DNA from: an uncultured Candidatus Saccharibacteria bacterium
Lineage (GTDB): Bacteria; Patescibacteriota; Minisyncoccia; 2-02-FULL-40-12; GWA2-44-9
Direction of reading: 5' to 3'
DNA: 57,723 bases
Assembly: GCA_964444955.1 (NCBI GenBank)
Contig: CAYUJB010000003.1
Location: forward strand, 1 to 57,723
Shown here: positions 29,850 through 44,544 of the stretch, one piece after another
Position numbering within the stretch: the first letter of the stretch is position 1
How the letters are laid out: each line of letters starts with the position of its first letter
Notes under the pieces: generated by a model
The model's input: only the letters and a program-made list of their open reading frames with translations
The model's database searches: none
What the model was told of the DNA's origin: nothing
Program-made: the position numbers and the translations under genes

Positions 29850-31430
29850 ATGGCATCTCCCACGACCATCCGACTCACCGGCGCTGCACTGACCACACAG
29901 GATGTGCTGGCAGTGGTCACCAATCCCCGGCTTCGCGTGCTCGTGGCACCAACAGCTCTCGCGCGGATGCGCAAATCAAAGAAACTTCTGGATGCATCGC
30001 TGACATCACGCATTATCTATGGCGTGAACACCGGCTTTGGACCCATGGCGTCGCATATTATTGGTCGCGATGATTTGATCCAGCTTCAGCTCAATCTCGT
30101 ACGGAGCCACGCCTCGGGCATCGGCGCCCCCATCGATCCCAAGCATGTACTGGCAGCGATGATCATCCGCCTCAACACCATTGCAAAAGGATTTTCGGGA
30201 GCATCTGAAAGCGTTGCTCAGCACCTTGAACGTTTCATCAATGCTCGCATCACGCCAGTGATTCCCGAACATGGCGCCGTGGGCACGAGCGGCGACCTGG
30301 TACAGTTGGCGCACATCGCGCTCGCGCTCATCGGCGAAGGCGAAGTGCACTATCGTGGCACGCGCATGCCAACCGCAGTGGCACTCAAAAAAGAAAAGAT
30401 ATCGCCACTCGTGCTGGGCCCCAAGGAAGGGCTCGCGCTCATTAACGGCACGGCCGGCATGACGGGTATCGCGGCGCTCCTGTGCGAGCACGCCGCGCGT
30501 ATCGTGGCTCTTACGCTCCGCACCGGTGCGTGGTCGCTGGATGTGGTGGGCGGATTCGATGACAGCATCAGCGAGCGCATCCATGCAGTGCGGCCCCACA
30601 CGGGACAACGCATTGCCGCTGCCGCCCTTCGCTCGTTGGTGGCCAAAAGCAAGCGCATGAAAAGTCGTGAGGCATTTAACAAAAAACATGCAATCTCCGA
30701 CGAAGTGCATAAAATCGCCGAAGACGTGCAAGAGATGTACTCGCTGCGCTGCATCCCGCAGATTGTGGGGCCGGTACTGGATGCGTTTTGGCGTGTCCAC
30801 AGCGATGTGACCACCGAAATGAATTCGGCGACCGACAATCCCATTGTTGATTGGGAGCGCGGTGTCTTTTTGCACGGTGGCAACTTTCACGGAGAGTACG
30901 TTGCGGCGGCAGTTGACTATCTCAAAACGGGCATCATCAAGCTCACCATGCTCAGCGAACGACGCATCAATTATTTTATGAATCCTGCCATCAATCACCG
31001 ACTCCCGCCGTTCGTGAATCTCCACACGCCCGGACTCACGCTCGCGCTCCAGGGAATGCAGTTTGTGGCCACCTCCACCGCCGCGCACAGCCAATCATTG
31101 GCATTTCCCCATCACATCCATTCAATTCCGACCAACGGTGATAACCAAGACGTCGTGAGTATGGGATTTGATGCTGCGCTCATCGCCACCAAAGCTATCG
31201 AGAATGCGTATGCGGTGCTGGCGATCGAACTACTCACGCTCGCGCAAGCAACCGATGCGCTCAAATGCTCTGGTGAGTTATCGCCCGCCAACCAGCAGCT
31301 GTATCGCGCGATTCGAAAACAGACAGCGGCCGTACGGGAGGATCGCTCACTGGCACCGGATCTTGCTCGCATCGTGGAATTTATACAGACGTCGGATGCT
31401 CTGCCGTTGGAATCACTACGGAAACCATGA
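29850..31430 (+). CDS. MIO-dependent aromatic amino acid ammonia-lyase (TAL/HAL/PAL family, probably TAL-like)
   Basis: YGVNTGFG, GTSGDL (MIO tripeptide TSG), EGLALINGT, YSLRC, DNP, GGNFHG and NQDVVSMG. Confidence 0.95.
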   Translation: MASPTTIRLTGAALTTQDVLAVVTNPRLRVLVAPTALARMRKSKKLLDASLTSRIIYGVNTGFGPMASHIIGRDDLIQLQLNLVRSHASGIGAPIDPKHVLAAMIIRLNTIAKGFSGASESVAQHLERFINARITPVIPEHGAVGTSGDLVQLAHIALALIGEGEVHYRGTRMPTAVALKKEKISPLVLGPKEGLALINGTAGMTGIAALLCEHAARIVALTLRTGAWSLDVVGGFDDSISERIHAVRPHTGQRIAAAALRSLVAKSKRMKSREAFNKKHAISDEVHKIAEDVQEMYSLRCIPQIVGPVLDAFWRVHSDVTTEMNSATDNPIVDWERGVFLHGGNFHGEYVAAAVDYLKTGIIKLTMLSERRINYFMNPAINHRLPPFVNLHTPGLTLALQGMQFVATSTAAHSQSLAFPHHIHSIPTNGDNQDVVSMGFDAALIATKAIENAYAVLAIELLTLAQATDALKCSGELSPANQQLYRAIRKQTAAVREDRSLAPDLARIVEFIQTSDALPLESLRKP

Positions 31431-32911
31431 CACCCCGAGAGCTGCTTTCGTTTTTCAATTCTCACAAGCGACGCAATTGGGTCAATCACTTCTTCTCGTT
31501 TGATGTCGCAGGGTTCGAACGATTACTCATCGAGCGCGATGAGTCGTTTTGGAATCGCCTGGGCGCACAACGCGCGCTCGCGCTCTTTCACGCAGCGGCA
31601 CAGCGTGTGCCCGCCTACAAGGATTTCCTTCGAACCAACCATGTCCGTCATTCAACGGTGCGCACCGCCGACGATTTTGCGCACGTGCCTCCGACCACGA
31701 AAAAGAACTACATTGATCGCTACCCCCTCGAGGCGCGCTGTTGGGACGGGCAACTCAGCGCCAACGGTCTTGTCGCCATGAGCTCCGGCACGAGTGGGGA
31801 GCCAAAATTTTGGCCCCGGGGTGGGTTTGCAGAATTCGAGGCAGCGATCATCCACGAGCTAGCATACCGATCTCTCTTTCATATCCAAAAAAAGAAAACG
31901 CTGCTGATTATCGGATTCCCCATGGGAGTGTATGTATCGGGCATCGCTACACTTTTGCCGAGCTGGATGGTGACGCAGAGAGATTACACGCTCACGCTGG
32001 TCGCTACGGGCAACAATAAAGCCGACATGCTGCGCGTCGCGCAGCATCTGCGCGAGTCATTCGAGCAAGTCGTTTTGGTGGGGCATCCTTTTTTCATCAA
32101 AGACGTCATCGAGACCGGCGCCTCCCAAGGCATCGACTGGAGTGCAGTGGACGTGTCGATGCTCTACTGCAGCGAGGGATTCAACGAGGCGTGGCGCGCC
32201 CACGTTTCAACCGTCGCCAAAATTCCGCCAAAACGCCTCCGTGCATTTAACACCTATGGCTCATCAGAGACACTCCTCATTGGTCACGAGACGCCACTAA
32301 GCGTTGCCGTTCGCCGCACACTCTCAGAGGTGCTGACCCCCAATGTGTTTCAATACAATCCTTTCTTGCGCTACATCGACGCTACCGGTGATGCACTCAA
32401 CTTCACTATGGATAACGGCGTGCCACTCATCAAATATGATCTCGCTGATGGTGGGCACGTTCTGTCGTTTGCCGAGGCAACTCAACACCTCCCCGCTGCC
32501 GCACGACGTACCGCCTGGAAGCTCCCCTTCGTGACCCTCGATGGTCGCCGCGATAACACCATCATATTCTACGCCGCCAACATCTACCCCGAACACGTGC
32601 ACGCTGCACTCAACGACAAAAAGTTTCTACGTAAAATCACGGGGAAATTTGCTATGCGTAAAGACTATCGTCCCAATAAAGATCAATTTCTTGAGATCAA
32701 TGTAGAACTACGTCCCGACGAAAAACCGACCGCCACACTTTCTGCTGGCATTGCTAAGCACGTCGTAGCGCGCCTGCTGGATATCAACATGGAATACAAA
32801 TTTCTCTGGTCAAATCTCGACAAAGACATCCGCCCGCGTATCGTATTGCGCCCCTACCAGCATGAGGTATACTTCCGACCGGGATTAAAACCGAGGTACA
32901 TTATCAAATGA
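31427..32911 (+). CDS. Phenylacetate-CoA ligase (PaaK)-family adenylate-forming enzyme
   Basis: SSGTSGEPK, TYGSSE, KYDLAD and GRRD...NIYP. ATGA overlap with the lyase. Confidence 0.88.
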   Translation: MTPRELLSFFNSHKRRNWVNHFFSFDVAGFERLLIERDESFWNRLGAQRALALFHAAAQRVPAYKDFLRTNHVRHSTVRTADDFAHVPPTTKKNYIDRYPLEARCWDGQLSANGLVAMSSGTSGEPKFWPRGGFAEFEAAIIHELAYRSLFHIQKKKTLLIIGFPMGVYVSGIATLLPSWMVTQRDYTLTLVATGNNKADMLRVAQHLRESFEQVVLVGHPFFIKDVIETGASQGIDWSAVDVSMLYCSEGFNEAWRAHVSTVAKIPPKRLRAFNTYGSSETLLIGHETPLSVAVRRTLSEVLTPNVFQYNPFLRYIDATGDALNFTMDNGVPLIKYDLADGGHVLSFAEATQHLPAAARRTAWKLPFVTLDGRRDNTIIFYAANIYPEHVHAALNDKKFLRKITGKFAMRKDYRPNKDQFLEINVELRPDEKPTATLSAGIAKHVVARLLDINMEYKFLWSNLDKDIRPRIVLRPYQHEVYFRPGLKPRYIIK

Positions 32912-34053
32912 ACGCTATCGACCGACCCACACTCTATACCACGACGCAGATCTCGCACCGTCGAGCAGTGACAAAGCTTCGGAAGGATACGAGCATCCGC
33001 GTGATCGACACGTACGAGAGCCAACTCTCGGAGCTCTTTGTTATTGAGCACCCTGAGGTTATCCGTCTTCCCAAGCATGAACTAGCGGCAACGCTGACCG
33101 ACTCGGTGAAGAAGACAGCGCGACGAGCTCCTCTCGAGCGTCAGGGCACCTGGGCGTGGCTTCCCTGGCAGCGCGCGCTCGTGCACATCTTGCCCGAAAA
33201 AGAATTTGTACGCGTTCGCACGTCACGAAATGGCAATCTCATCACCCGCGAGGAACAAGAAAAGTTCTATCGGTGCACCGTGGGCGTTGCGGGATTGTCA
33301 GTAGGAGGCAGTATCGCGCTCACCCTCGTACTCCAGGGTGGTGCACGGAATATCCGCATCGCAGATTTCGATTCGCTCGAGCTCTCGAACACTAATCGCA
33401 TTCTTTCGGGAGTGCATGAGCTGGCCACTCCGAAAACGACTATCATCGCGCGGCGCATCTGGGAAATGAACCCATACGCGCAGATCGATATTTTCCCCGA
33501 TGGGCTCACCGAAGACAATATCCCGCGCTTCATGCGAGGACTCGATGTCGTCGTCGATGAAATGGACCAGATGGCAATCAAACAGCTCATTCGCGAGCAG
33601 GCACGCGCGCTCAAGGTTGCACTTGTCTCAACGGCGGATAACGGCGATACGAGTGTTGTAGATGTTGAGCGACACGATCTCAAGCGAACACCGTACTTCT
33701 TGGGACGACTTGGCAAAACCAGTGTCGAGCACTTCTGTGCTATGGATAAGCTACAAATCATCCGCGAGATTACCCGTCTCATGGAACCCAAGAACGTACC
33801 GCCCCGCATGCAGGCGTCGCTGCCCGAAATCGGTCACACGCTCGTATCGGTCCCACAACTGGGTGGCACAGCACTGATGGGCGCGGCGGCAACTGCGTAC
33901 TGCATCCATCGGATCGCGGCCGGGTTGCCCCTGCCGTCGGGTCGATCCATCGTTTCACTCGACGAGAAACTCGAACCAGGATTTATGAAGTCGAAAGCGG
34001 TGACGAAGCGAGACAGGAACACACGAGCATTCGCAAAACTCTTCGGCTTGTAA
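32908..34053 (+). CDS. ThiF/E1-like adenylyltransferase, Rv1355c (MoeY)-type
   Basis: W.W.PW.R.LVHILP..EF..VRT.RN..LIT.EEQ, GVAGLSVG and DFDSLELSNTNR. No CxxC zinc motifs. Confidence 0.85.
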   Translation: MNAIDRPTLYTTTQISHRRAVTKLRKDTSIRVIDTYESQLSELFVIEHPEVIRLPKHELAATLTDSVKKTARRAPLERQGTWAWLPWQRALVHILPEKEFVRVRTSRNGNLITREEQEKFYRCTVGVAGLSVGGSIALTLVLQGGARNIRIADFDSLELSNTNRILSGVHELATPKTTIIARRIWEMNPYAQIDIFPDGLTEDNIPRFMRGLDVVVDEMDQMAIKQLIREQARALKVALVSTADNGDTSVVDVERHDLKRTPYFLGRLGKTSVEHFCAMDKLQIIREITRLMEPKNVPPRMQASLPEIGHTLVSVPQLGGTALMGAAATAYCIHRIAAGLPLPSGRSIVSLDEKLEPGFMKSKAVTKRDRNTRAFAKLFGL

Positions 34054-34122
34054 GCGACGCGCCCTCGAACTCATCGAGGACGTTTTTCTTGAACTGAATA
34101 TAGAGGTATACTAGAAATACCT

Positions 34123-35154
34123 ATGCGCACTGTCGTTGAACGCATCTTAGAGGCGGGGGTGATGGCCCCATCGGGTGATAATTGCCAACCGTGGCGATTT
34201 GAAGTTACCGACGATACAATCGACGTATTTCTGATACCCACACGCGACCAATCACTTTACAGTTGGGGCAATCGTGCCTCCTACGTTGCACATGGCGCGC
34301 TCATCGAAAACATAGCAATAGCATCGGGGCCTCTGGGCATGGCGTGCGATATCCGCGAGCTTCCTGATCCGGACAATCTCCTCCACACGGCACACATCAC
34401 GCTCACCCCAAGCACACCGAAAGAGCATCCACTTACTGTTGCGATAGCGAAGAGGTGCTCGAATCGAAAACCATACAAAGCGCTCGGACTCACCGATGCA
34501 CAAAGGACGCAGCTTACCCAAGCCGGAGGAAATAAGGTGCACCTCATTGAGGATAGCGCCCGGCGCAAAGCGCTCGCCTACGCACTCGCCTCGAACGAAA
34601 AGGTGCTTTTTGAAAATCGCGCCATGCACGCATTTTTCTTTGACCACATGCTTTGGTCATCTATCACATCAGCTCCTCATGCTCTGGGATTCCCCGTGGG
34701 AGCCCTTGAGCTTCCCCCGCCGGTGCGTTTCGTTTGGCCAGCACTACGTCACTGGCCCCTGATGAAGGCGCTCACCTCGCTCGGATTTGCAAATGCGATT
34801 GTGTTTGGCAATACACCCATCTACGCATCAGGAGCAGCGCTTGCCAGCTTTACGCTGCCCGACCGCTCGGAGCGTGCCTATCTGGACAGCGGTCGTACGC
34901 TCCAGCGTCTCTGGCTCACCGCGACACGCCTCGGACTCAGCGCGCAGATTCTCACAGGTATACCTCTTCTCATGAATGCGGTACTCGAGAACAACACAGC
35001 ACTCTCATCAGATCACTGCGCGCTTATTCGCGCACGCTACCAGGCCATCGAATCCATACTGAACACTGACGAGCCCATCGCCTTCTTTTTGCGTATCGGC
35101 ACCAGCGCACCCCCAAGCGCACGCACACCGCGAACCAAACCGTTGATCGTATGA
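34123..35154 (+). CDS. Nitroreductase-fold (Acg-like) flavoprotein
   Basis: APSGDNCQPWRF, RCSNRKPY and GRTLQRLWLTATRLGLS. Confidence 0.85.
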   Translation: MRTVVERILEAGVMAPSGDNCQPWRFEVTDDTIDVFLIPTRDQSLYSWGNRASYVAHGALIENIAIASGPLGMACDIRELPDPDNLLHTAHITLTPSTPKEHPLTVAIAKRCSNRKPYKALGLTDAQRTQLTQAGGNKVHLIEDSARRKALAYALASNEKVLFENRAMHAFFFDHMLWSSITSAPHALGFPVGALELPPPVRFVWPALRHWPLMKALTSLGFANAIVFGNTPIYASGAALASFTLPDRSERAYLDSGRTLQRLWLTATRLGLSAQILTGIPLLMNAVLENNTALSSDHCALIRARYQAIESILNTDEPIAFFLRIGTSAPPSARTPRTKPLIV

Positions 35155-36812
35155 ACCCCTCCACTCCATCACTCGGTCTCATAGGCACATCACTCCTCGA
35201 CCGCCTGGGCAACCTCGATCTCGTCGCCATTCTCATTACCGTAGCGGCAGTTCTGACGCTCGGTTTTGTTGTGTATTTCAATAATCCGAAAAGCTCAACC
35301 AATCGCGCGTTCTTGATGTTTTCGCTGATGACCGTTGCGTACGGCTCAGCTAACTTTGCAAGCTACCAAATCACCGATCCGTGGCAGGTGCTGTGGCTGC
35401 TGCGCATCACCATGTTCTCTGCGGTGTGGCACGCTGTCTCGTTCTTCTATCTCTTCTTCGTATTCCCGCAACAGCGCGTATCGTTGCCCCGGTGGTTTGT
35501 GGGCGGCGCTCTTCCCATCGCAGCAGCTACCAGTATGCTCACGCTCACGCCCTACGTCTTTGAATCGATACAAACAGTTTCCGAGGTTGGTTCAGTCACT
35601 AATCCTATTCGAGGCCCGGCAATTCCTCTCTTTGGTGCCGTCGCGGGCATCTTTGTTATCGCAGGGCTCTGGGAGCTCCTCAAGAAAACGTTCTCGGGCG
35701 CGGACTTACAACGCAAACAGGCGCGCGTCATCCTCTTTGGCGCCGCAACAACATTTCTCCTGATTCTTATCTGTAACGTCCTGCTTCCTCTCGCATTCGA
35801 TATCCTCCGCTTCATCCCCCTCGTCCCCATTTTCTTCTTACCGTTCATCCTTCTCACGGCACATGCCATTCGCAAATATCGATTCTTGGAGACCAAGGTG
35901 CTGGCCACGGAAATCTTTGCCCTCGTACTTGTCATCCTGAATATGATTGAGCTGGTTATCGCACGAGACCTCGCCACACTCATTTTGCGCATCGGTGTAT
36001 TTTCCGCAGTGCTCGCGTTTAGCATCATGCTTATTCAATCCGTTATCCGCGAGGTGAAACAACGCGAGGAATTGCGTACACTCACCGATGATCTCCAGAA
36101 AGCAAACGGTAAACTCACGGAGCTTGATCAGCTCAAATCTCAGTTCTTGTCGTTTGCGTCACATCAACTCCGCTCGCCACTCACGGCTATCAAGTGGCAG
36201 GCACAGCTCTTGCTTGATGGTTCCGTGGGCACGCTACCCAATAAGGCGCTGGAGACCGCACGCGGCATCGAAGAATCATCTGACCGCATGATTGAACTGG
36301 TCAACGAATTCCTCAACCTACGCAAACTCGAAGAGGGAAAAATGGAATACACACTTGAACCCACAGACATCGCCGAGCTTGCCTCAAGCGTAGTCACCGC
36401 CCTCAAACAACTGGCCGTGCACAAGGGGCTTAACCTCACGTATGTGAACACAGCAACAAAAACGCTTTGTTCGGTGGATCGACAAAAAATGATGCAGGTG
36501 GTGCAGAATCTCGTCGACAACGCGGTAAAATACACCGATCATGGCGAAGTGCGCGTTGCGGTGGAGGATGCATCGACTGGGCGACTTCGTATTCTCGTGT
36601 CTGACACCGGTCATGGCATCGATCCCGCGCTGATCGATAAGCTTTTTGAACAGTTTGTCCGTGATAAAAAAGATGCGATGCAAATAGAGGGTACAGGTCT
36701 TGGTCTCTACATTGCCAAGCAGATGGTGGATGCACATCACGGCGCCATTCGAGTGACCTCGCCCGGCAAAGGCAAGGGCAGCACGTTTGTTGTGGAATTG
36801 CCCACGCTCTAG
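35151..36812 (+). CDS. Sensor histidine kinase with N-terminal 7TM (HisKA_7TM-like) domain
   Basis: Multi-TM N-terminus (NPKSSTNRAF); H box ASHQLRSPL, N box NLVDNAVKY, DTGHGI and GTGLGL. Confidence 0.95.
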   Translation: MNPSTPSLGLIGTSLLDRLGNLDLVAILITVAAVLTLGFVVYFNNPKSSTNRAFLMFSLMTVAYGSANFASYQITDPWQVLWLLRITMFSAVWHAVSFFYLFFVFPQQRVSLPRWFVGGALPIAAATSMLTLTPYVFESIQTVSEVGSVTNPIRGPAIPLFGAVAGIFVIAGLWELLKKTFSGADLQRKQARVILFGAATTFLLILICNVLLPLAFDILRFIPLVPIFFLPFILLTAHAIRKYRFLETKVLATEIFALVLVILNMIELVIARDLATLILRIGVFSAVLAFSIMLIQSVIREVKQREELRTLTDDLQKANGKLTELDQLKSQFLSFASHQLRSPLTAIKWQAQLLLDGSVGTLPNKALETARGIEESSDRMIELVNEFLNLRKLEEGKMEYTLEPTDIAELASSVVTALKQLAVHKGLNLTYVNTATKTLCSVDRQKMMQVVQNLVDNAVKYTDHGEVRVAVEDASTGRLRILVSDTGHGIDPALIDKLFEQFVRDKKDAMQIEGTGLGLYIAKQMVDAHHGAIRVTSPGKGKGSTFVVELPTL

Positions 36813-36850
36813 CTAGAATCTCTTGGTTTCCCTGTGGTATACTTAGGGGT

Positions 36851-37246
36851 ATGCCGGGTGAAAAACCTCTCATTCTTCTCACGGACGATGATGCGAGTAT
36901 TCGCAACATTTTGCGCATCAAATTAGAAGCGGCGCAGTTCGAGGTTGTAGAAGCTAAAAACGGCCAAGAAGCCATTGATTTTTGCAGCAAGCAACGCCCC
37001 GACCTCATTGTCATGGACGTCAGTATGCCTGTTATGACAGGCACGGAAGCGGTAACCCACATCAAAGAAGATCCGAAGCTTCGTGATATCAAGGTGGTGT
37101 TTCTGAGTAGCTTTGGTGAAGAGAGTGAACTCAACGCCTGGATCGACCAAAAATACGCCAAAGAGTTGGGCGCGGTTGACTACATGAAGAAGGGTGAGGA
37201 TATCGGCAAAATCATAGAGAAGATAACTACACTACTGCATGGGTAG
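36851..37246 (+). CDS. Single-domain response regulator (receiver only)
   Basis: TDDD acidic pocket, MDVSMP phospho-Asp, FLSS and YMKK; no output domain. Confidence 0.93.
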   Translation: MPGEKPLILLTDDDASIRNILRIKLEAAQFEVVEAKNGQEAIDFCSKQRPDLIVMDVSMPVMTGTEAVTHIKEDPKLRDIKVVFLSSFGEESELNAWIDQKYAKELGAVDYMKKGEDIGKIIEKITTLLHG

Positions 37247-38975
37247 TCAACCTGAAAAATCAGTTCTCATCATCGAGGATAATTTTTTCATGGCGCAGTT
37301 GTTGAGCGAAAAGATTGGCCACCAGGGATTTTCGGCGGTGCACGCGCAAGATGGCACTACGGGTTTAAAAAAGGCCGACGAGAAAGCTCCGTCGCTCATC
37401 CTGGTAGACATTCCGCTCTCCGGTGAACTCGACGGTATCGCAACACTCACAGCCATTCGTGGCCGCAAGAGTCTCTCTGCATCCCCCGTGCTCATCCTAC
37501 TCAACACCAGTGATGCAAAGGAGATCGAGCAGCTGACAAAATTAGGCTTCACCAACTACCTCGTCAAGGCGGACGCCAATGCCGACGCCATCGTATTGAA
37601 AATTGTTGAGATGGTAACGGGTATCGCGCAGAAAACCACCAAGATCGTCCCGCCGGCTGAAGCGGAAATCGCGGCAACCAGTCGCGTTCCAAAAAAGGCC
37701 GCGGCGCAAAAAGAATCATCTGATGACGGAGCGGCATTTGCGGCGCGTGCAGTCGCGCTCAAGACGGAAGTGGAGGCAATGCTCAAACTACCCGAAACAG
37801 AAATCTCCATCATCAAGCTCGTCGACGACATGATGATCTATGCATTTCTGGCACGGGCTTCTGACGTCCACCTGGAGCCATTCGAAGAAACGCTTGTCGC
37901 GCGCATGCGCATCGACGGCATCCTCAGCGATGAATTTACGTTTGTAAAAAATCTCCACTCGGGCATCATCTCGCGTATCAAAGTGTTAGGTGGCATGCGC
38001 ACCGATGAGCACCAAGCCGCACAAGATGGGCGATTCCAGATGAGTATCCCTGAACTCAACAAGCAGTTCGATGTCCGTGTGAGCATCATCCCTACCTACT
38101 ACGGTGAAAATGGCGTTCTCCGCTTGCTGGCCGAACAAACATCGATTAGCTCACTCGACAATCTCGCATTCACCGATTTTGATCGAGCGCGTATTCGTAA
38201 AGCGGTCAAAACACCCTATGGCATGATTCTCGCAACCGGGCCCACCGGATCTGGGAAAACCACCACGCTCTATACTATTTTGCGCGAGCTCAATACCCGC
38301 GAGGTCTCGGTCATCACCATCGAAGACCCTATCGAGTACTCCCTCGAAGGCGTCGACCAGATTCAGGTTAATGCGCGCACGGGCCTCACGTTTGCCACCG
38401 GATTGCGATCCATTTTACGCCAAGACCCCAACATCATTATGGTAGGAGAAATCCGTGACGAGGAAACCGCCTCCATCGCCATCAATGCTGCACTCACGGG
38501 GCACAAGCTCCTGAGTACCATTCACACCAACGATGCCGCCACCACACTGCCCCGCCTCCTTGATATGGGCATCGAGCCGTTCTTGGTGGCGTCCACGGTG
38601 AACGTTGCCATCGGACAACGTCTCGTGCGCATGATCTGCAATTCCTGCAAAGTACCGCGTCGCATCACGGAAGGTGAATTCAACGCGCTCAAAGAAAATA
38701 TCCCGGAAGCAATTTTGGGAGACCACCATGATTTTTTCCAGGGCAAAGGGTGCGCGATATGCGGCAACACCGGCTATCGAAGCCGCATGGGGATTTATGA
38801 GATACTGGAGATGAACGATTTCATTCGCGAGGCGCTCATGCGGCGCGCCGATGCCGGAGAAATAAAAAAGATCGCTATCAAAAACGGTATGACCACGCTC
38901 CTTGAAGATGGGTTTAAGAAGGCCGTCGAGGGTAGAACGACTATCGAGGAGCTCTTACGCGTTATTCACGAATAA
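37239..38975 (+). CDS. pilB: Type IV pilus/T2SS assembly ATPase (PilB/GspE) with N-terminal receiver domain
   Basis: Receiver (IIEDN...LVDIPL...YLVK) followed by ASDVHLEP, GPTGSGKTTT, MVGEIRD, STIHTND and CxxC...CxxC. Confidence 0.93.
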   Translation: MGSQPEKSVLIIEDNFFMAQLLSEKIGHQGFSAVHAQDGTTGLKKADEKAPSLILVDIPLSGELDGIATLTAIRGRKSLSASPVLILLNTSDAKEIEQLTKLGFTNYLVKADANADAIVLKIVEMVTGIAQKTTKIVPPAEAEIAATSRVPKKAAAQKESSDDGAAFAARAVALKTEVEAMLKLPETEISIIKLVDDMMIYAFLARASDVHLEPFEETLVARMRIDGILSDEFTFVKNLHSGIISRIKVLGGMRTDEHQAAQDGRFQMSIPELNKQFDVRVSIIPTYYGENGVLRLLAEQTSISSLDNLAFTDFDRARIRKAVKTPYGMILATGPTGSGKTTTLYTILRELNTREVSVITIEDPIEYSLEGVDQIQVNARTGLTFATGLRSILRQDPNIIMVGEIRDEETASIAINAALTGHKLLSTIHTNDAATTLPRLLDMGIEPFLVASTVNVAIGQRLVRMICNSCKVPRRITEGEFNALKENIPEAILGDHHDFFQGKGCAICGNTGYRSRMGIYEILEMNDFIREALMRRADAGEIKKIAIKNGMTTLLEDGFKKAVEGRTTIEELLRVIHE

Positions 38976-38991
38976 CTACAAACGGGGGGAT

Positions 38992-40068
38992 ATGAAATGG
39001 TTCGATAAACTTAACGCATACGCATTTCGGCTCACGCTGAAAGATAAGATGCTGTTTGCGCGCCACATGGAGATGATGACGCGCTCGGGTATGCAGGTGC
39101 TCAATGCACTGGAGATCCTTAAAAAACAGACGACGTCCAAGCCGTTCATCAACATGATTGACCAGCTCATCGATGATGTCCGCAATGGCCATTACCTTTC
39201 GGTTGGCATGGAGCGCTACCGCCACGTCTTCGGGGACTTCTTCATCAATCTGATTCGCGTTGGCGAATCATCGGGAACGCTTTCAGAAAACTTTGCATAC
39301 CTTGCCGCTGAACTTGGTAAAAAATCGGAGCTGCAAAAGAAAATCCGCGGCGCTATGGCGTATCCCTTCGTCATTCTTTTTGCGACCTTCGGCATATCAG
39401 GGATTCTTTCATTCTTTATTTTCCCCAAAATCCTCCCCGTCCTCAGAAGCCTCAATAGTGCATTACCACTTTCGACCCGCATCTTCATTGCCATCTCTGA
39501 ATTCATGATTTCGTACGGTATCTATGTATTTCTGGCGATTGTACTTGCAGTGATAGGATTCTTTCTTGCTATCCGCGTTCGCTCCATACGCAAAACGTGG
39601 CACAAGATCATTTTGGCAACGCCGGTCGTCGGTCGCCTTTCGACTGATGTGAATATCATCGGCATCTCACGCACGCTCAATCTTCTGCTTCGCGGAGGCG
39701 TCAAAATTGTTCAAGCACTTGAAATCACGTCTGATACCCTTCCCAATCTGGTCTACCAAGACGAACTGCGCATCATCTCAACCGCCGTTCAGCGTGGCGA
39801 ACCCATGAGCAAATCAATGATCGCCAACGAGCGACTCTTCCCACCTACCTTTAGCCAGATGGCAGCGGTAGGAGAGAACACCGGTAAACTCGATGAGACA
39901 CTGGTGTTCATGGCCGATTTCTATGAAGGAGAGCTCGACAACGCGACAAAAACCATGAGCAACATCCTCGAGCCCGCAATGCTCCTCACCATGGGAGCCA
40001 TTGTTATGTTTGTTGCGATCTCCATCATTACCCCCATCTATTCGGTTACTCAGAACCTTGGCCGATGA
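38992..40068 (+). CDS. pilC: Type IV pilus platform protein PilC/GspF (start revised)
   Basis: VGESSGTL, AMAYP, VGENTGKLD and LEP..L. Confidence 0.93.
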   Translation: MKWFDKLNAYAFRLTLKDKMLFARHMEMMTRSGMQVLNALEILKKQTTSKPFINMIDQLIDDVRNGHYLSVGMERYRHVFGDFFINLIRVGESSGTLSENFAYLAAELGKKSELQKKIRGAMAYPFVILFATFGISGILSFFIFPKILPVLRSLNSALPLSTRIFIAISEFMISYGIYVFLAIVLAVIGFFLAIRVRSIRKTWHKIILATPVVGRLSTDVNIIGISRTLNLLLRGGVKIVQALEITSDTLPNLVYQDELRIISTAVQRGEPMSKSMIANERLFPPTFSQMAAVGENTGKLDETLVFMADFYEGELDNATKTMSNILEPAMLLTMGAIVMFVAISIITPIYSVTQNLGR

Positions 40069-41828
40069 CGTCTTCTTTCCAGCGCGTTCGTGGATTTACA
40101 CTCTTGGAAACCCTCATCGCGATGGGCATATTTTCTATTGTGGCAACCAGTATCTTTTTCGCTTACTCCAACATTCTCGACATCATTATTGCCGTGCAAT
40201 CCAATGACGCTGCGCTGACCGTGTTACGCAATGAATTCGAAATGATTCGAAACATTCCTTACCCCGACGTCGGCATCAGCGGGGGTGCGCCACCAGGATC
40301 GCTGATTGCCACAAAAACGGTAGCGCTCGGATCAGCAGAGTACACCGTCACCACGACAGTTCGAGATGTTGATGATGTATTTGACGGAAGCATCAGCAGC
40401 ACCCCACGCGACGCCATTCCAGGAGACTACAAACTGGTCGATGTCTACGTCACTTGCGACACTTGCAAGCGCTTTGTGCCTGCTCACATGGTGACCACCA
40501 TCGCCCCCATCGGTCTGGAGCGTGCCACGCGAAATGGCTCACTCTTTCTCAATGTTATCGACGCGTCCGGCAACCCAGTAAGTGGAGCTACTCTTGCCAT
40601 TACTAATTCCCTCGTGAATCCCTCAATCTCGATTACCGACTCAACCAACGTCAGTGGCAGTCTCGATTTTGTCGATATTGCAACCAGCAGCGCTGGCTAT
40701 CATATCGTCGTAACAAAAAATGGCTACTCTTCAGACCGCACGTATGCTGTCGGCGACTCGGCAAATCCCAACCCACTCCAACCCGACGCATCAGTTCTCG
40801 AACAAAAAACAACCAAGCTGAGCTTTATCATCGACCAACTCGGCTCGTTTACCTTCAAAACACTGGATAAGTATTGCGCGGCCGTCCCCCAGATTCCCTA
40901 CCAACAGGTGGGATCCAAGCTCATCGGCTACGATCCCGACATCTATAAATACGATGCGCTCCTGACTACGAATAGCTCAGGGATATTTAGCAATACGTCT
41001 CAAGAGTGGGACACCTATGATCTGTATAACCGCTCAACAACCTACGACATCGCGGGCACCGTGCCCTTCATGCCGGTTATCGTAGATCCCGCCAGCAGCT
41101 CGACGCACACTTGGATTATGGAGCCAAAAAATGCCCCCGCGCTACTCGTCTCTATATCCGATGAGGACGAGAGCCCGCTCTCAGGGGCATCAGTACGCCT
41201 CACGGGCCCTAATGTAGACATCACTCGCGTCACCGGGAGAGCATTTATCGATCAGACCGACTGGTCGACATCTGGTGCGTATACCTCCATAACGACGTAT
41301 ATCAACACTACGACGCCCGGCATCATCACCCTGTCTCAAATCAACGGGAAATATGCATCGTCGAGCGATCAAGTACTCACCTCAAAAACGTTCGACCTAG
41401 GCACTACAACGAGCACGCTCTCGACCTTCACTTGGAATCCCACGTCGCAACCGACGAATACAACCTTGAAATTTCAAATTGCCGCCAATAACGACAATGC
41501 GACATGGAACTACGTGGGGCCTGATGGAAAAAGTACCTCATACTTTACTGCCAGTGGGACCACTACGCCCTCGAGCTTGAGCGGAAAAAGATACCTGCGA
41601 TATCAAGCAGTTCTCCGCACCTCCAACCAAACAGTAACACCGAGCCTCCACGATATCGCCATCGAGTTTACTTCAGCGTGCACCGCTCCAGGACAAACGT
41701 ACATTGGCGGACTTCCCACGGGAACCTACACAATAACCACATCAAAGTCAGGATACGAGGACAGTATCGACGCGGTCGACGTAACCCAAGACTGGCAAGA
41801 ATTTCAAGACACACTTATCGCTCAATGA
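40065..41828 (+). CDS. Large pilin-like protein with Ig/carboxypeptidase-regulatory-like repeats
   Basis: Prepilin site RG-FTLLE plus a hydrophobic helix; two repeats of the ..D..G.P.SGA.. type. Confidence 0.82.
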   Translation: MTSSFQRVRGFTLLETLIAMGIFSIVATSIFFAYSNILDIIIAVQSNDAALTVLRNEFEMIRNIPYPDVGISGGAPPGSLIATKTVALGSAEYTVTTTVRDVDDVFDGSISSTPRDAIPGDYKLVDVYVTCDTCKRFVPAHMVTTIAPIGLERATRNGSLFLNVIDASGNPVSGATLAITNSLVNPSISITDSTNVSGSLDFVDIATSSAGYHIVVTKNGYSSDRTYAVGDSANPNPLQPDASVLEQKTTKLSFIIDQLGSFTFKTLDKYCAAVPQIPYQQVGSKLIGYDPDIYKYDALLTTNSSGIFSNTSQEWDTYDLYNRSTTYDIAGTVPFMPVIVDPASSSTHTWIMEPKNAPALLVSISDEDESPLSGASVRLTGPNVDITRVTGRAFIDQTDWSTSGAYTSITTYINTTTPGIITLSQINGKYASSSDQVLTSKTFDLGTTTSTLSTFTWNPTSQPTNTTLKFQIAANNDNATWNYVGPDGKSTSYFTASGTTTPSSLSGKRYLRYQAVLRTSNQTVTPSLHDIAIEFTSACTAPGQTYIGGLPTGTYTITTSKSGYEDSIDAVDVTQDWQEFQDTLIAQ

Positions 41829-42424
41829 AAACCACTGGCTTTACCCTTGTCGAACTTCTCATCTCCATGGCTATCGCCTCCATGATACTGGGTCTTGTGA
41901 CAAAGTTTACGCTCGACATCTCTGGCGCCAGCACTACCTATGGTCAGAGCGTACTCACACACCAAACGGTGGCGCTCGCTGCTAAACGACTCACTGATCA
42001 AATTTCTTCAGCTGCCCAGTCTGCTCAGGGCAGCTATCCGATTCTGAGCGCGTCCCCCACATCTCTTACGCTGTACACCGACATCGATGCCGACAGTGTC
42101 GTTGATCAAGTCCGTTATTTTCTGAGCGGCACCACCCTTCGCATGGGCGTTATCGCTCCGAGCGGAAATCCGCTTGTCTATAACCCATCGTCCGAAAACA
42201 TTAGCGATCTCGTCGATGATATCGTATCGCAACCTGGCGTAGATCTATTCTCCTACTACGACACCACCTACACCGGTAGCCAATCGTCACTCGCGTACCC
42301 CATCGATGTCTCAAAAATCGGTCTCGTTCGCATTACTCTCACTACCGACCGCGATACTACCACCGAACCAGGCCCCCTCACCACATCGCTCGTAATTGAT
42401 ATTCGTAACCTTCGCGCCCAATGA
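41825..42424 (+). CDS. Minor pilin (PilW-like, start revised)
   Basis: MKTTG-FTLVELLISMAI; ATGA overlap with the upstream gene. Confidence 0.85.
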   Translation: MKTTGFTLVELLISMAIASMILGLVTKFTLDISGASTTYGQSVLTHQTVALAAKRLTDQISSAAQSAQGSYPILSASPTSLTLYTDIDADSVVDQVRYFLSGTTLRMGVIAPSGNPLVYNPSSENISDLVDDIVSQPGVDLFSYYDTTYTGSQSSLAYPIDVSKIGLVRITLTTDRDTTTEPGPLTTSLVIDIRNLRAQ

Positions 42425-43869
42425 ACACCCCCTATCATCAACGTGGTCAGCTAACCCTGTATGTGCTCGTGTTCAGCGCCGTCGCCATCACAACGCTTGC
42501 TGGCCTCATCCTCTGGGTCGACTCCAATCTCAAAATTGGCTACCGCTCTATTGATCAAGCTCAGGCGCAGGCAATAGCCGAGGCAGGAATCGAATACGCA
42601 CGGTGGCACTTTGCGCATAGCCCCAACGACTATCAAGACGGCACAGGACACGCGGGACCCTATGTGCATGACTACAAGAATAAAGATGGCGTATCCATCG
42701 GAACATTTTCGCTCGACATCGTCCCTCCAGCCAACGGGTCCACCATCATCACCATCACATCGACTGGCTGGGTCACAGCTGCTCCCACGCTGACCAAAAA
42801 GATTCGCGTGCAACTTGCGCCCGAATCCGTCATCAAGTACGCAGTGCTCGCCAATAGCAATATCAAATTTGAATCAGGCACCGAAATCTTTGGCCCCGTG
42901 CATTCCAACGGTGGCATTCACTTTGATGGCATAGCCCACAACCTCGTCACCAGTGCGCGCTCCACGTACAACGATCCCGATCACTCAGGAGCAAACGAAT
43001 ATGCCGTGCACACACACGCCACAACGACCGATCCTCTGCCGACAGCTCAGCTTCCCGTTCGCAACGATATCTTCATGGGAGGGCGATTATTCCCGGTTCC
43101 ACCGGTGGATTTTGCGGGCATCACCAAAGGCATGGCCCAAATAAAAAGTGCGGCGCAATCGGGAGGAAAATATTTTGGAAAGTCAGGTGCAAAAGGGTAT
43201 CACATCGTGCTCAAAACAAATGGTACATATACCGTGACGAAGGTAAAGAAAACTCTGAAAATACCCAAAGGGTGCAAAAATACGCAACACCAAAAAGGAT
43301 GGGCGACGTGGAGTATCGATTCTGGCAACAGCAGCGAGCAGACCGTTGGTACCTACAATTACCCGGCAAACGGCATTATCTTCTTTGAAGATAATGTGTG
43401 GGTCGATGGTCAGATCAAAAACAATATCCTTACCATCGCGGCCGCGAAGCTTCCTGCAAGTAAAAAGAGTTTTAAGAATATCATCATCAATCACAGCGTG
43501 GCATACACCTACTACGATGGTAGGGATGTGCTGGGGCTGGTCTCACAAGGTGACGTACATGTGGGCATGGCGAGCGATGCGACGCTACGCGTGGACGCTG
43601 CCGTGGTTGCTCAAAATGGTCGCGTGGGACGATACTACTATCGACCCGCTGTTGGATCTAAGACGTATTGCGCCCCCTATGACACGCGCACGAGTATCAC
43701 GTTTAACGGCATGATCGCTACGAACACCAGTTACGGATTTGCGTATACGGATGGGTCTGGCTACCAGAGCCGCACCATTCTCTTTGATGCGCACCTGCAA
43801 TACAACCCACCCCCTACATTCCCGCTGATCTCAACGGACTATCACCAAATCCTGTGGTCACAACTCTAG
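42421..43869 (+). CDS. PilX-like minor pilin with large C-terminal domain
   Basis: QRG-QLTLYVLVF N-terminus and QAQAIAEAGIEYA PilX motif. Confidence 0.8.
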   Translation: MNTPYHQRGQLTLYVLVFSAVAITTLAGLILWVDSNLKIGYRSIDQAQAQAIAEAGIEYARWHFAHSPNDYQDGTGHAGPYVHDYKNKDGVSIGTFSLDIVPPANGSTIITITSTGWVTAAPTLTKKIRVQLAPESVIKYAVLANSNIKFESGTEIFGPVHSNGGIHFDGIAHNLVTSARSTYNDPDHSGANEYAVHTHATTTDPLPTAQLPVRNDIFMGGRLFPVPPVDFAGITKGMAQIKSAAQSGGKYFGKSGAKGYHIVLKTNGTYTVTKVKKTLKIPKGCKNTQHQKGWATWSIDSGNSSEQTVGTYNYPANGIIFFEDNVWVDGQIKNNILTIAAAKLPASKKSFKNIIINHSVAYTYYDGRDVLGLVSQGDVHVGMASDATLRVDAAVVAQNGRVGRYYYRPAVGSKTYCAPYDTRTSITFNGMIATNTSYGFAYTDGSGYQSRTILFDAHLQYNPPPTFPLISTDYHQILWSQL

Positions 43870-44003
43870 TATGGTGCGGTGTGTGGACAATTCGTTTGGC
43901 AATCCCTGGTATACTTAATGAAATCAAGGTCGATAGCTGGGACGCTCCATGCATGGCGCCTCAGTGCACAATGTATTGAAATTTCAACAAACATAAATTA
44001 CCT

Positions 44004-44471: not shown

Positions 44472-44544
44472 TTTTTCCCCAGGAGGAATACACAAAGCGC
44501 CCCGACGGGGCGCTTTGTGGTCGTGGTATACTTGGAGATATTCT

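Follow-up and report, generated by a model that had tools for sequence, protein, structure and literature searches.

Metabolic enzymes and a membrane sensor in a CPR genome

What do an ammonia-lyase, an adenylating ligase, a ThiF-like protein and a flavin oxidase make in a bacterium of the candidate phyla radiation (CPR), and why do they adjoin a membrane histidine kinase? The question is raised by a contig of an uncultured “Candidatus Saccharibacteria” bacterium (CAYUJB010000003.1; the window is the whole stretch analyzed, 57,723 nucleotides), in which an initial annotation had proposed the synthesis and sensing of an aryl signal. That interpretation as a whole is partly supported by our analysis. 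We found no publication on the cassette in the literature, and we infer its product, the acceptor of its ligase and the ligand of its kinase from the genes. The host genome (696 kb, 96% complete) fits the assignment to the CPR made in the initial annotation.

Six open reading frames, all on the plus strand, lie at the coordinates that had been given for them. They encode an MIO-dependent, tyrosine ammonia-lyase-like aromatic amino acid ammonia-lyase (526 aa; positions 29850 to 31430), a divergent adenylating ligase of the PaaK fold (ANL superfamily, 494 aa; 31427 to 32911), a putative ThiF/E1-like ATP-dependent cyclodehydratase (381 aa; 32908 to 34053), a tandem nitroreductase-fold flavin-dependent oxidase of the Acg/TyzC-like type (343 aa; 34123 to 35154), a seven-helix membrane sensor histidine kinase (553 aa; 35151 to 36812), and a stand-alone CheY-like receiver (131 aa; 36851 to 37246). 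ATGA overlaps join lyase to ligase, ligase to ThiF and oxidase to kinase, as the initial annotation had it; the ThiF and oxidase genes are separated by 69 nt and are not coupled, and 38 nt lie between kinase and receiver.

The relevant gene run continues past position 37246, where the initial annotation ended. A gene for a receiver-fused type IV pilus assembly ATPase of the PilB/GspE type (578 aa; 37239 to 38975, plus strand) starts 8 nt inside the receiver gene. It is followed on the same strand by genes for a PilC/GspF platform protein (38902 to 40068; T2SSF, 181.6 bits), whose true start is probably an ATG near 38992, and for two pilin-like proteins with prepilin N-methylation motifs (40065 to 41828 and 41678 to 42424; PF07963, N_methyl), the first of which shares an ATGA overlap with the PilC gene. 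The motif GGTATACT occurs eight times in the window, versus 0.41 expected, and three plus-strand copies sit about 7 to 35 nt 5' of start codons, namely, those of ThiF (32866 to 32873), the oxidase-kinase pair (34105 to 34112) and the receiver (36836 to 36843). We regard this box as a candidate -10 promoter element, and its repetition suggests several transcription units instead of a single operon.

ThiF and oxidase as relatives of oxazolone synthetases

Judged by sequence, the ThiF-like protein and the oxidase are a split relative of the oxazolone synthetases TrzS (Rv1355c), OxzB and TyzB/TyzC. ThiF covers positions 12 to 341 of the Rv1355c family model NF005901 (324.8 bits) and the oxidase positions 375 to 712 (143.6 bits), thereby corresponding to the N- and C-terminal halves of the Rv1355c/TrzS type; the two scores sum to 468 bits, just under the family cutoff of 476. 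ThiF is 34 to 37% identical to Rv1355c-family proteins and retains the GLSVG, DxD, SNxNR, DExD and VERxD motifs. Its nearest solved structure is TcdA, which makes the oxazolone ring of ct6A (PMC12596934). The oxidase matches the Acg family (134.6 bits; PDB 2ymv at 1e-9), and APSxxNxQPW, Arg111, Arg115, Arg324 and Arg337 are kept in 59 CPR oxidase homologs, among which no counterpart of TrzS Arg540 was assigned. A fused CPR ThiF-oxidase homolog is 30 to 32% identical to Rv1355c-family proteins of Rhodococcus, Algoriphagus and Nannocystis over 96 to 98% of their length.

In experiments, Rv1355c (TrzS) turned N-acyl tryptophan into an oxazolone by cyclization and desaturation (PMC12856293), and OxzB performs both reactions on N-acyl tyrosine (bioRxiv 10.1101/2020.06.11.147165). 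Homology to these enzymes is what we observed, and the same cyclization and oxidation would follow here by analogy. The proposal that the acyl product is cyclized and oxidized agrees with the Rv1355c/TrzS activity (PMC12856293). The precedents chosen in the initial annotation fared less well. It had invoked an N-acyl-cyclolysine (ACL) system with a kinase, but ACL signals act through repressors of the LuxR family and not through a kinase (PMC13080023), and its analogy with p-coumaroyl-HSL found no support here. Oxazolone biosynthesis (OxzAB, TyzACB and TrzAS), which it did not name, is a better precedent than ACL.

Lyase and ligase

The lyase matches PF00221 (527 bits, E = 3.8e-158 in a profile search) and falls in a large CPR-only clade at 53 to 60% identity. 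Its top NCBIfam model is the FlxA tyrosine ammonia-lyase (TAL), at 572 bits and under the cutoff of 700, and the HutH models score 462 to 464 bits, far below cutoff. SgTAM (298 bits), RsTAL (280 bits) and the Pseudomonas putida HAL (274 bits) are its top solved relatives. Tyr57, His87, Asn199, Tyr297, Arg300 and Asn432-Gln433-Asp434 are kept in 41 CPR lyase homologs, and the MIO triad, Thr146-Ser147-Gly148, is Thr-Ser-Gly in 38 of them. A His at the selectivity-switch position and a Gln in the second motif (Gln433, where histidases carry Glu) give the TAL/PAL pattern under published specificity rules (PMC3992019). The family and the catalytic residues are evident from the sequence; the substrate would most likely be tyrosine.

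The ligase has no Pfam match in a profile search and scores weakly against PaaK model TIGR02155 (45 bits, 5e-12; cutoff, 646); the ANL core motifs SSGTSGEP, YGSSE, D341, R374 and K488 do not vary among 30 homologs. Closest in fold to its AlphaFold model (pLDDT 84.7) are PaaK1/2, BT_0428, 2-hydroxyisobutyryl-CoA ligase and ClxA, the last solved with 3-amino-4-hydroxybenzoate and its adenylate. Motifs and modeled fold show that the ligase is competent for adenylation. Like PaaK and ClxA, it has a compact ANL fold and the full set of adenylation motifs, but it differs from them in its low identity (only 13 to 16%), in an N-terminal extension of about 100 helical residues, and in its genome, which lacks the last enzyme of CoA biosynthesis. 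NatL2 is a PaaK-like enzyme that forms amides or esters. We propose that the ligase forms an amide independently of CoA, with a second amino acid as the probable acceptor; its sequence is no proof of an amide over a CoA thioester made with scavenged CoA. A search of the whole genome identified no GNAT N-acyl amino acid synthase (PF13444), urocanase, CoaE, or acyl-carrier domain or acyl carrier protein, and the absence of PF13444 bears out the earlier suggestion that lyase and ligase occupy the place of an acyl synthase.

Conservation of the cassette across Patescibacteria

Of 401 Patescibacteria genomes sampled, 43 carry the ligase. Among 84 loci, its neighbors include ThiF (68 loci), a membrane histidine kinase (64), the oxidase (55) and the lyase (43); the kinase, of the HisKA_7TM-type family, lies 3' of the enzymes in all 64 cases. 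The arrangement is far from chance: dozens of genera carry this gene set amid unrelated flanking genes. Named relatives all belong to Patescibacteria, save one metagenome-assembled contig labeled Bryobacteraceae. In this co-occurrence survey, the cassette is syntenic across the CPR, kinase included, as the reading of one circuit would have it.

The gene 5' of the ligase encodes the lyase, an ELFV amino-acid dehydrogenase, an aminotransferase or, in four loci, an uncharacterized Rossmann-fold protein; where the lyase is absent, a dehydrogenase or aminotransferase often takes the same position. The lyase of the first proposal is thus only one among several proteins that can fill the entry position of a wider cassette. 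Lyase, ELFV dehydrogenase and aminotransferase are all amino-acid-deaminating enzymes, and loss of the alpha-amino group is the sole feature that they share. Ligase clades track the type of upstream gene, and one clade with 100% support comprises 29 ligases, 25 of which adjoin a lyase. The ligase also occurs in fusions: ELFV dehydrogenase-ligase-ThiF (P0164), ligase-ThiF (P0167), ThiF-ligase (P0169), dehydrogenase-ligase (P0241) and lyase-ligase (L118). ThiF and oxidase are fused in L091, L106 and L109. Together, these exchanges of the first enzyme and the fusions suggest an order of events in which an amino acid is deaminated and the resulting acid is activated, joined, cyclized and oxidized. 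Some cassettes contain tailoring genes for a SAM methyltransferase or an alpha/beta hydrolase.

Kinase, receivers and pilus genes

The kinase matches HisKA_7TM (35.7 bits; cutoff, 28.6), HisKA and HATPase_c and is the sole HisKA match in a profile search of the whole genome. Within the family of the host organism, kinase and cassette are either both present or both absent, and a sister genus that lacks the cassette has no HisKA kinase. The sensor half (residues 1 to 305) is modeled as a helical bundle (pLDDT 83.8) with invariant Asn68 and Arg85; searches with this model returned no significant solved relative and no similarity to rhodopsins or any known photoreceptor. When enzyme types are mapped onto the sensor half, 10 label changes result, compared with 12 for the kinase core and about 26 for shuffles. 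The sensor half tracks enzyme type no better than the core and thus gives no signal of specific ligand-receptor coevolution.

The stand-alone receiver (PF00072, 79 bits) has an acidic pocket (D12/D13), the phospho-acceptor D56 and K113, as read off the sequence. The pilus ATPase combines Response_reg (residues 9 to 111, acceptor Asp57 present) with T2SSE (residues 189 to 574). These two receiver domains, both in the locus, are the only ones in the genome, and neither protein matches a DNA-binding output domain in profile searches, so the kinase cannot control transcription of the enzyme genes in the ordinary way. The receiver-PilB fusion lies 3' of the cassette in four loci, L001, L075 and L083 among them; the link to the pilus was observed in just a few lineages.

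A proposed pathway and its alternatives

We tentatively propose, at somewhat less than even confidence, that the cassette makes a small oxazolone-type molecule (or the corresponding dehydro-N-acyl amino acid), with amino acids as its sole starting material, and is hard-wired to the membrane kinase. The lyase would remove ammonia from an aromatic amino acid, most likely tyrosine, and so yield an aryl-acrylic acid (p-coumarate). The ligase would adenylate this acid and acylate a second amino acid directly on its amino group, with no CoA involved, thereby doing the work that known pathways assign to a GNAT N-acyl amino acid synthase. ThiF would then adenylate the resulting N-acyl amino acid on its carboxylate, leading to ring closure to an oxazolone, and the flavin oxidase would desaturate the C-alpha-C-beta bond, as in TrzS, OxzB and TyzB/TyzC. 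The product, hydrophobic and hydrolytically labile, may be perceived within the membrane by the seven-helix kinase of the same operon, as the strict gene linkage suggests. The kinase would signal only to the two neighboring receivers, the CheY-like protein and the N-terminal domain of PilB; since the genome holds no others, the output would be control of the type IV pilus at the protein level, not transcription.

It is somewhat unlikely that an oxazolone-type or related aromatic metabolite is made for another role (UV screen, pigment, antimicrobial or host-acting electrophile) and that the co-inherited kinase senses a host or envelope cue. Known oxazolones are yellow, absorb at 330 to 360 nm and have no proven function, and antibiotics prompted several proteobacteria to make them (bioRxiv 10.1101/2020.06.11.147165; PMC12856293); antimicrobial activity is known for related N-acyl tyrosine derivatives (PMC12856293). 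The lack of specific covariation between sensor and enzymes fits this reading, as do the 20 of 84 loci with no kinase near the ligase, many of which lie on contigs that end early. However, kinase linkage that persists across dozens of genera with unrelated flanks, the ATGA overlap of oxidase and kinase, the joint presence or absence of kinase and cassette in the host's family, and receiver proteins that match no DNA-binding output domain, hence no ordinary regulator of the enzyme genes, all speak against it.

We consider it improbable that the lyase is an aminomutase, or that the upstream enzymes work in reverse and form amino acids, with ligase and ThiF building a dipeptide-like compound (for example, with beta-tyrosine), such as another heterocycle or a cyclized dipeptide. 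The Thr-Ser-Gly triad of most CPR homologs is present in bacterial aminomutases too, so that the lyase could make a beta-amino acid, not an acrylate; the tyrosine aminomutase SgTAM is its best solved relative by sequence, with AdmH next, and ELFV dehydrogenases and aminotransferases are reversible. Against this, the NCBIfam aminomutase models score 398 and 385 bits versus 572 for FlxA, the three alternative first enzymes have only alpha-amino loss in common, and ThiF and oxidase match enzymes acting on N-acyl alpha-amino acids (PMC12856293).

It is very unlikely that the kinase binds the product as a chromophore or cofactor and acts as a light or redox sensor, in the manner of photoactive yellow protein, instead of perceiving a diffusible signal. 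A TAL paired with a p-coumarate ligase is a known route to the chromophore of that protein. Arylidene-oxazolones, which absorb near 360 nm, are oxygen analogs of the green fluorescent protein chromophore (bioRxiv 10.1101/2020.06.11.147165). The oxidase/kinase overlap and a seven-helix bundle with invariant Asn and Arg are compatible with such a sensor, and a coumaroyl-derived substituent on the product would lengthen its conjugation. However, the sensor does not resemble known photoreceptors, no covalent-attachment residue was identified in it, dehydrogenase or aminotransferase cassettes would yield less conjugated products, and cassette carriers are mostly groundwater organisms.

Also very unlikely is modification of a peptide or protein by ThiF, oxidase and ligase, be it RiPP-like (azoline/azole, pantocin or microcin C) or E1-like conjugation. 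E1-like proteins and nitroreductase-fold dehydrogenases do occur together in thiazole/oxazole peptide systems. Peptides are the substrates of most ThiF-like enzymes characterized in secondary metabolism (PMC12596934). Yet the cassette, with gaps of 69 and 38 nt, is too tight to hold a precursor-peptide gene, the 84 loci contain no recurrent small ORF (ORFs of at least 70 aa called) and no YcaO gene, ThiF and oxidase are homologous over their full length to TrzS and OxzB, which act on small molecules, and fusions join the ligase to amino-acid-deaminating enzymes. Plain catabolism of histidine or aromatic amino acids by a histidase with hut genes and a phenylacetate-CoA ligase, the names that automatic annotation gives to the homologs (“histidine ammonia-lyase” and “phenylacetate-CoA ligase”), has a negligible probability and is already contradicted by the absence of urocanase and CoaE, by FlxA outscoring HutH and both HutH and PaaK models falling far under their cutoffs, by Gln433 in place of the Glu of histidases (PMC3992019), and by conserved partners that are ThiF, oxidase and kinase, not hut or paa genes.

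Comparison with known systems

To return to the proposed oxazolone-type pathway, its nearest known counterparts are TrzA/TrzS (Rv1356c/Rv1355c), the N-acyl tryptazolone pathway of Mycobacterium and Rhodococcus, and their kin TyzA/TyzC/TyzB (Mycobacterium tuberculosis) and OxzA/OxzB (Pseudoalteromonas rubra). All combine a ThiF-like ATP-dependent cyclase with a tandem nitroreductase-fold flavin oxidase, with homology over the full length; the split pair parallels TyzB/TyzC, and the fused versions in some CPR relatives parallel TrzS and OxzB. Identity is only about 30 to 37%, and the known substrates are aromatic N-acyl amino acids. Unlike these systems, the CPR cassette has a PaaK-fold ligase and a deaminating enzyme instead of a GNAT synthase and an acyl-CoA or ACP supply, and a membrane histidine kinase belongs to it. 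We know of no receptor for any oxazolone. The flexirubin TAL FlxA of Chitinophaga pinensis, like the TAL of Flavobacterium johnsoniae, shares the TAL/PAL residue pattern and is the best curated model for the lyase, which differs in its score below the 700-bit cutoff, its Thr-Ser-Gly triad, its CPR-only clade, and a partner that is neither a 4-coumarate-CoA ligase nor a polyketide synthase.

As for signaling, ACL in Bacteroidota is credited to Linares-Otoya et al. (Nature 2025) in later papers (PMC13419125; PMC13080023). Two enzymes make an N-acylated, cyclized amino-acid derivative that acts as a signal, and therein lies the likeness to the CPR cassette. In LuxM/LuxN, CqsA/CqsS and agr/AgrC, as proposed here, genes for a small signal, membrane-permeant or secreted, adjoin a polytopic kinase that senses by its membrane domain alone; their enzymes and sensor domains are unrelated to those of the cassette. 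Whereas these quorum-sensing pairs act on a transcription factor, the cassette apparently acts on a pilus ATPase with a fused receiver. An operon of a tiny CPR genome that probably builds a small aromatic oxazolone-type product and lies beside the organism's sole kinase, itself next to a receiver-bearing pilus motor, may thus be a self-contained chemical sensing circuit.

Organization of the locus

A row of nine co-oriented genes extends from position 29850 to about 42400 on the plus strand. Pfam and NCBIfam scans identify the first as the gene of an MIO aromatic amino acid lyase (29850-31430). It is followed by a ligase gene (31427-32911), which has no Pfam match and only a weak match to PaaK, by a gene for a ThiF-family protein (32908-34053), and by a gene for a tandem nitroreductase-fold protein, here called the oxidase (34123-35154); the Rv1355c family model is matched by the former in its N-terminal half (324.8 bits) and by the latter in its C-terminal half (143.6 bits). 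Further downstream, the scans identify a HisKA_7TM histidine kinase (35151-36812), a single-domain receiver (36851-37246), and a PilB/GspE ATPase with an N-terminal receiver (37239-38975), with PilC and then two pilin-like genes on its 3′ side, again on the plus strand. ATGA overlaps join lyase and ligase, ligase and ThiF, oxidase and kinase, and PilC and pilin; the receiver and receiver-PilB genes overlap by 8 nt, and 38 nt separate the kinase gene from the receiver gene. The initial annotation had recognized the row of the first six genes correctly, except that the ThiF and oxidase genes are not coupled but separated by a gap of 69 nt; in addition, the gene row runs on into the pilus operon.

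The genome (696 kb in 22 contigs, 96% complete) gives no compositional sign of recent transfer of the cassette, the GC content of which is 0.54-0.56, compared with 0.51-0.58 across the window. The octamer GGTATACT is enriched about 20-fold in the window (8 copies versus 0.41 expected), with copies on the plus strand at 32866-32873, 34105-34112, 36836-36843, 43908-43915, and 44525-44532 and on the minus strand at 50826-50833, 55760-55767, and 56016-56023. Several copies precede a start codon by a distance of between a few and about 35 nt, and the octamer may be a −10 promoter box of this organism, with very short or absent leaders. Because copies stand before the ThiF, oxidase, and receiver genes, the locus may be transcribed in several units. 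Consensus scans of the window were uninformative: promoter-like sites were fewer than expected (8 against 14.6), and terminator-like sites more numerous (24 against 16.8). A short GC-rich hairpin with a T-run, found in a terminator scan that is overall within chance, lies at 34063-34079 inside the 69-nt gap between ThiF and oxidase and could be a weak terminator or attenuator splitting the cassette. Upstream of the cassette, the region 20799-24380 encodes a probable copper-handling pair, namely, a DsbD_2/HMA/cupredoxin membrane protein together with an HMA-containing heavy-metal P-type ATPase; the same ATPase likewise flanks the cassette in a close relative (locus L001).

A probable tyrosine ammonia-lyase

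The lyase matches PF00221 over the entire model (positions 1-466 of 466; 527.4 bits, cut-off 27.3). Its catalytic set, consisting of Thr146-Ser147-Gly148 (the MIO triad), Tyr57, Asn199, Tyr297, and Arg300, is conserved in 41 homologues from Patescibacteria (CPR). Among the lyase and mutase models, the top match is NF053541 for FlxA, the flexirubin tyrosine ammonia-lyase (TAL), with 572.3 bits, which is under the equivalog cut-off of 700. The HutH models TIGR01225 and NF006871 give 462 bits (cut-off 539) and 463.7 bits (cut-off 524), respectively, and the aminomutase models give 385 to 398 bits. By sequence, the closest solved structures are the tyrosine aminomutase SgTAM, AdmH, and Rhodobacter TAL, with histidase just behind. 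The selectivity rule given in PMC3992019 places His at the first switch position and, in the second motif, Gln in the TAL type and Glu in histidases. With the register taken from motif matching rather than from structure, His87 is present in 39 and Gln433 in all of the 41 homologues.

No urocanase was found in the window's genome. The FlxA score, the nearest structures, the His87/Gln433 pair, and the absence of urocanase favor a conversion of tyrosine to p-coumarate, and on these sequence grounds the enzyme is most likely a TAL rather than a histidase. Caution is advised in this assignment on account of the Thr-Ser-Gly MIO triad, which is familiar from bacterial aminomutases, and of the large CPR-only clade, devoid of characterized members, to which the lyase belongs. 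The initial annotation had placed the enzyme close to the Flavobacterium johnsoniae TAL. FlxA is indeed the top NCBIfam model, but the score is under its cut-off, and the best 120 matches, all of them unnamed or generically named CPR-type sequences, include no named relative; since these matches are uninformative by name, it is from the NCBIfam model that the closeness is read. A plain catabolic histidase accompanied by hut genes, which the initial annotation had considered as an alternative, is not what we find: the HutH models stay below their cut-offs, Gln433 replaces Glu, and the genome lacks urocanase, so that hut catabolism was rejected.

An adenylate-forming ligase in place of the acyltransferase

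The ligase belongs to the ANL superfamily of adenylate-forming enzymes and has a PaaK-like two-domain fold. The P-loop (S/T)SGT(S/T)G, the YGxxE motif, the ribose-binding Asp, the hinge Arg, and the C-terminal catalytic Lys are invariant in 30 ligase sequences. Foldseek searches with the model (pLDDT 84.7) retrieved PaaK1/2 and BT_0428 at about 1e-18 with probability 1.00; the closest folds, which also include 2-hydroxyisobutyryl-CoA ligase and ClxA, share only 13-16% identity with it. A role in paa catabolism was rejected, because the score against the PaaK model TIGR02155 (45 bits) is far below the cut-off (646.3) and the genome lacks dephospho-CoA kinase (CoaE).

An acyl-carrier domain was likewise not found in the genome, and a GNAT-type N-acyl amino acid synthase (PF13444) was found neither in the whole genome nor in the cassette neighborhoods. 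The ligase gene occupies the place that the GNAT synthase has in known oxazolone pathways. We infer that the ligase forms an amide with an amino acid, because the ThiF/oxidase pair would then most simply obtain the type of substrate used by its relatives. On whether the second half-reaction would be direct amide or ester formation or would instead yield a CoA thioester, the absence of CoaE, a carrier protein, and a GNAT synthase bears only indirectly. The ClxA structure is listed with 3-amino-4-hydroxybenzoate and its adenylate. ClxA and NatL2 function in benzoxazole assembly without CoA, and thus there is a precedent for CoA-free acyl transfer in the PaaK-like fold.

ThiF and oxidase as a split relative of oxazolone synthetases

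The ThiF gene covers positions 12-341 and the oxidase gene positions 375-712 of NF005901, the model of the Rv1355c family. Summed over the two genes, which is a rough guide only, the scores (324.8 + 143.6 = 468 bits) compare with a cut-off of 476 for the fused protein. Across the entire N-terminal half, the window's ThiF protein is 34-37% identical to Rv1355c-family proteins, and it keeps all of the invariant family motifs (nucleotide loop, DxD, SNxNR, and DExD). Its D213/E218/D220 (VVVDEMD) aligns with invariant family columns; the conserved Asp of TrzS (Rv1355c) is Asp217. The oxidase keeps APSxxNxQPW, four conserved arginines, and the general flavin motifs; the candidate position for the flavin-site residues mutated in TrzS (Arg540 and Gln651) is variable in the CPR oxidases, in an alignment that does not include the M. 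smegmatis sequence. ThiF and oxidase are fused in three CPR relatives (for example, at L091:8470-10713), and one such fusion has 30-32% identity over 96-98% of its length to Rv1355c-family proteins of Rhodococcus, Algoriphagus, and Nannocystis. From this sequence comparison, the two genes are a predicted split relative of oxazolone synthetase, with family membership taken in a broad sense.

The closest solved structure to the ThiF gene product is TcdA, an oxazolone-forming dehydratase (PMC12596934). TrzS uses ATP to cyclize N-acyl tryptophan and O2 to desaturate it, the product being an N-acyl tryptazolone, and TyzB/TyzC and OxzB perform the same chemistry on N-acyl tyrosine (PMC12856293; PMC12596934; bioRxiv 10.1101/2020.06.11.147165). 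The window's cassette differs from the known oxazolone pathways in lacking their GNAT N-acyl amino acid synthase and in adding a kinase as well as a ligase with an upstream deaminating enzyme. To our knowledge, the substrate in all known oxazolone pathways is made from acyl-CoA by a GNAT-type N-acyl amino acid synthase. A precursor peptide of the RiPP type was considered and rejected, as the cassette leaves no space for it and no recurrent small open reading frame was found (open reading frames of at least 70 aa were called).

Conservation and modularity of the cassette

The ligase family is present in 43 of 401 evenly sampled Patescibacteria genomes. We gathered 84 nonredundant loci and annotated them by means of profiles derived from the first set. 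ThiF is found no more than four genes away from the ligase in at least 68 of these loci, the kinase in at least 64, the oxidase in at least 55, the lyase in at least 43, and the receiver in at least 27. The counts are minimum values, since the cassette is truncated by a contig end at many loci. For the lyase, the proportion is biased upward by one search that started from the window's own subfamily; among the 43 evenly sampled loci, 7 have a lyase. Flanking genes vary between loci. The synteny across the CPR, kinase included, that the initial annotation had anticipated is thus borne out. Named ligase relatives are from Paceibacterota, Doudnabacteria, Kaiserbacteria, Roizmanbacteria, Gottesmanbacteria, and Parcubacteria, all Patescibacteria but one. 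The exception, locus L093 (DATDHK010000034.1), is a 17.5-kb contig binned as Bryobacteraceae (a metagenome-assembled genome of Acidobacteriota) with a CPR-type lyase and ligase (47% identity), and it could reflect mis-binning or transfer.

At loci without the lyase, the gene before the ligase often encodes an ELFV-type amino acid dehydrogenase (7 loci), a class I/II aminotransferase (3 loci), or a Rossmann-fold protein (4 loci). The ligase tree contains a fully supported clade of 29 sequences, 25 of which adjoin a lyase, and the dehydrogenase-linked ligases form a separate supported clade of their own. Fusions join the same enzymes in several proteins: ELFV dehydrogenase, ligase, and ThiF in P0164 (1242 aa), ligase and ThiF in P0167, ThiF and ligase in P0169, dehydrogenase and ligase in P0241, and lyase and ligase at L118:44-3118 (1024 aa). 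Some cassettes carry one more gene between oxidase and kinase, namely, a class I SAM methyltransferase of about 240-285 aa in lyase-type cassettes (L063, L081, L087, L107, L109, L115, and L118) or an alpha/beta hydrolase of about 290 aa in dehydrogenase-type cassettes (L047 and L059); these are likely tailoring enzymes. In the cassette logic that we propose as shared, an amino acid would be deaminated, and the resulting acid would be activated, joined, cyclized, and oxidized. Such a logic fits organisms that have amino acids and lack fatty acid or CoA metabolism.

The sole histidine kinase and its proposed link to the pilus motor

The kinase consists of a HisKA_7TM domain (PF16927; residues 29-247; 35.7 bits, cut-off 28.6), HisKA (329-396), and HATPase_c (443-551). 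Its sole sensory part is the seven-helix membrane domain, in which Asn68 and Arg85 are invariant. The model of this region, a helical bundle, is confident (pLDDT 83.8), and a fold search with the seven-helix domain gave no match better than E 0.01; the weak matches were to eukaryotic GPCR bundles (TM-scores of 0.35-0.5), a resemblance between folds that we read as generic.

A genome-wide inventory shows that this is the only HisKA kinase in the 696-kb genome. Receiver domains number only two, in the adjacent CheY-like protein and at the N terminus of PilB, both in this locus and both with the acidic pocket, the acceptor Asp, and the conserved Lys. No DNA-binding output domain was matched in either receiver protein. 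With a sole kinase and no such output domain, conventional transcriptional control of the enzyme genes by the kinase is excluded, and the output of the kinase is likely protein-level control of pilus assembly, as judged from domain content. A sister genus of the same family, which is without the cassette, has no HisKA kinase and one partial receiver. The median number of HisKA kinases per genome is 4 with the cassette and 2 without it, which makes the state of having a single kinase peculiar to the window's lineage.

The cassette is followed by the receiver-PilB fusion in three other genomes, two from close relatives and one from a more distant member of Paceibacterota, and ordinary PilB is nearby at two other loci. 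A receiver-PilB profile run across 80 genomes aligned with the ATPase core only and did not tell fused from unfused PilB; a direct check of neighboring PilB genes found the receiver fusion in 4 of 7. A second PilB paralogue, at a contig end of the window's genome (C22:421-1593, minus strand), is 64% identical to the ATPase core of receiver-PilB, and no third receiver was detected in the genome. At 40065-46146, the pilus operon goes on to encode unusually large pilin-like proteins; the first (587 aa) has CarboxypepD_reg domains as well as a prepilin motif, the next two have 248 and 482 aa, and the last (646 aa) has a weak arylsulfotransferase Ig-like match.

The kinase is genetically linked to the enzymes, both by its proximity to the ligase (at most four genes away at 64 of the 84 loci) and by the ATGA overlap with the oxidase gene in the window. 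Sensor-specific covariation with enzyme type was not detected: the sensor half shows 10 and the kinase core 12 changes, compared with about 26 in shuffles, and both halves cluster equally by ligase clade, which indicates coinheritance only. N-Acyl-cyclolysine signaling of Bacteroidota, which the initial annotation had invoked as an analogue, turns out to be a weak one, because that system uses LuxR-type regulators (PMC13080023).

Discussion

The discovery of oxazolone natural products dates from 2020-2021, and characterization of the Mycobacterium tuberculosis pathways followed in 2023-2025. Patescibacteria are thought to have almost no biosynthesis. We know of no oxazolone receptor and of no chemical signaling system defined for Patescibacteria, and our literature search found no paper describing this cassette. 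The biological role of oxazolones has been called unresolved (PMC12856293), and the authors of the oxazolone papers leave function open, mentioning signaling only as a possibility. New for the window are the genome-wide two-component inventory, the link to receiver-PilB, and the interpretation of the lyase at residue level.

We hold the proposed mechanism overall with moderate confidence. Its fullest form is a complete CPR communication circuit that operates without transcription, and this we consider rather unlikely: a CoA-free aryl-oxazolone, made from two scavenged amino acids, would serve the sole kinase as its ligand, or possibly as a bound chromophore, and the kinase would phosphorylate receiver-PilB and thereby switch type IV pilus assembly. 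A predicted oxazolone-forming pair tied to a dedicated membrane kinase provides a concrete candidate receptor. The cassette takes up about 7 kb of the 696-kb genome, includes its sole two-component kinase, and has the pilus motor as its nearest output. The exchange of the first enzyme among lyase, dehydrogenase, and aminotransferase points to a family of related products, and with the ligase, N-acyl amino acids would be reached by a new route that does not depend on CoA. If the circuit reading is true, an oxazolone receptor and a signaling system of Patescibacteria would each be identified for the first time. Type IV pili are central to host binding by Patescibacteria episymbionts (PMC11623550), and a pilus switch, if true, would act on the apparatus that episymbionts use to find and hold their hosts.
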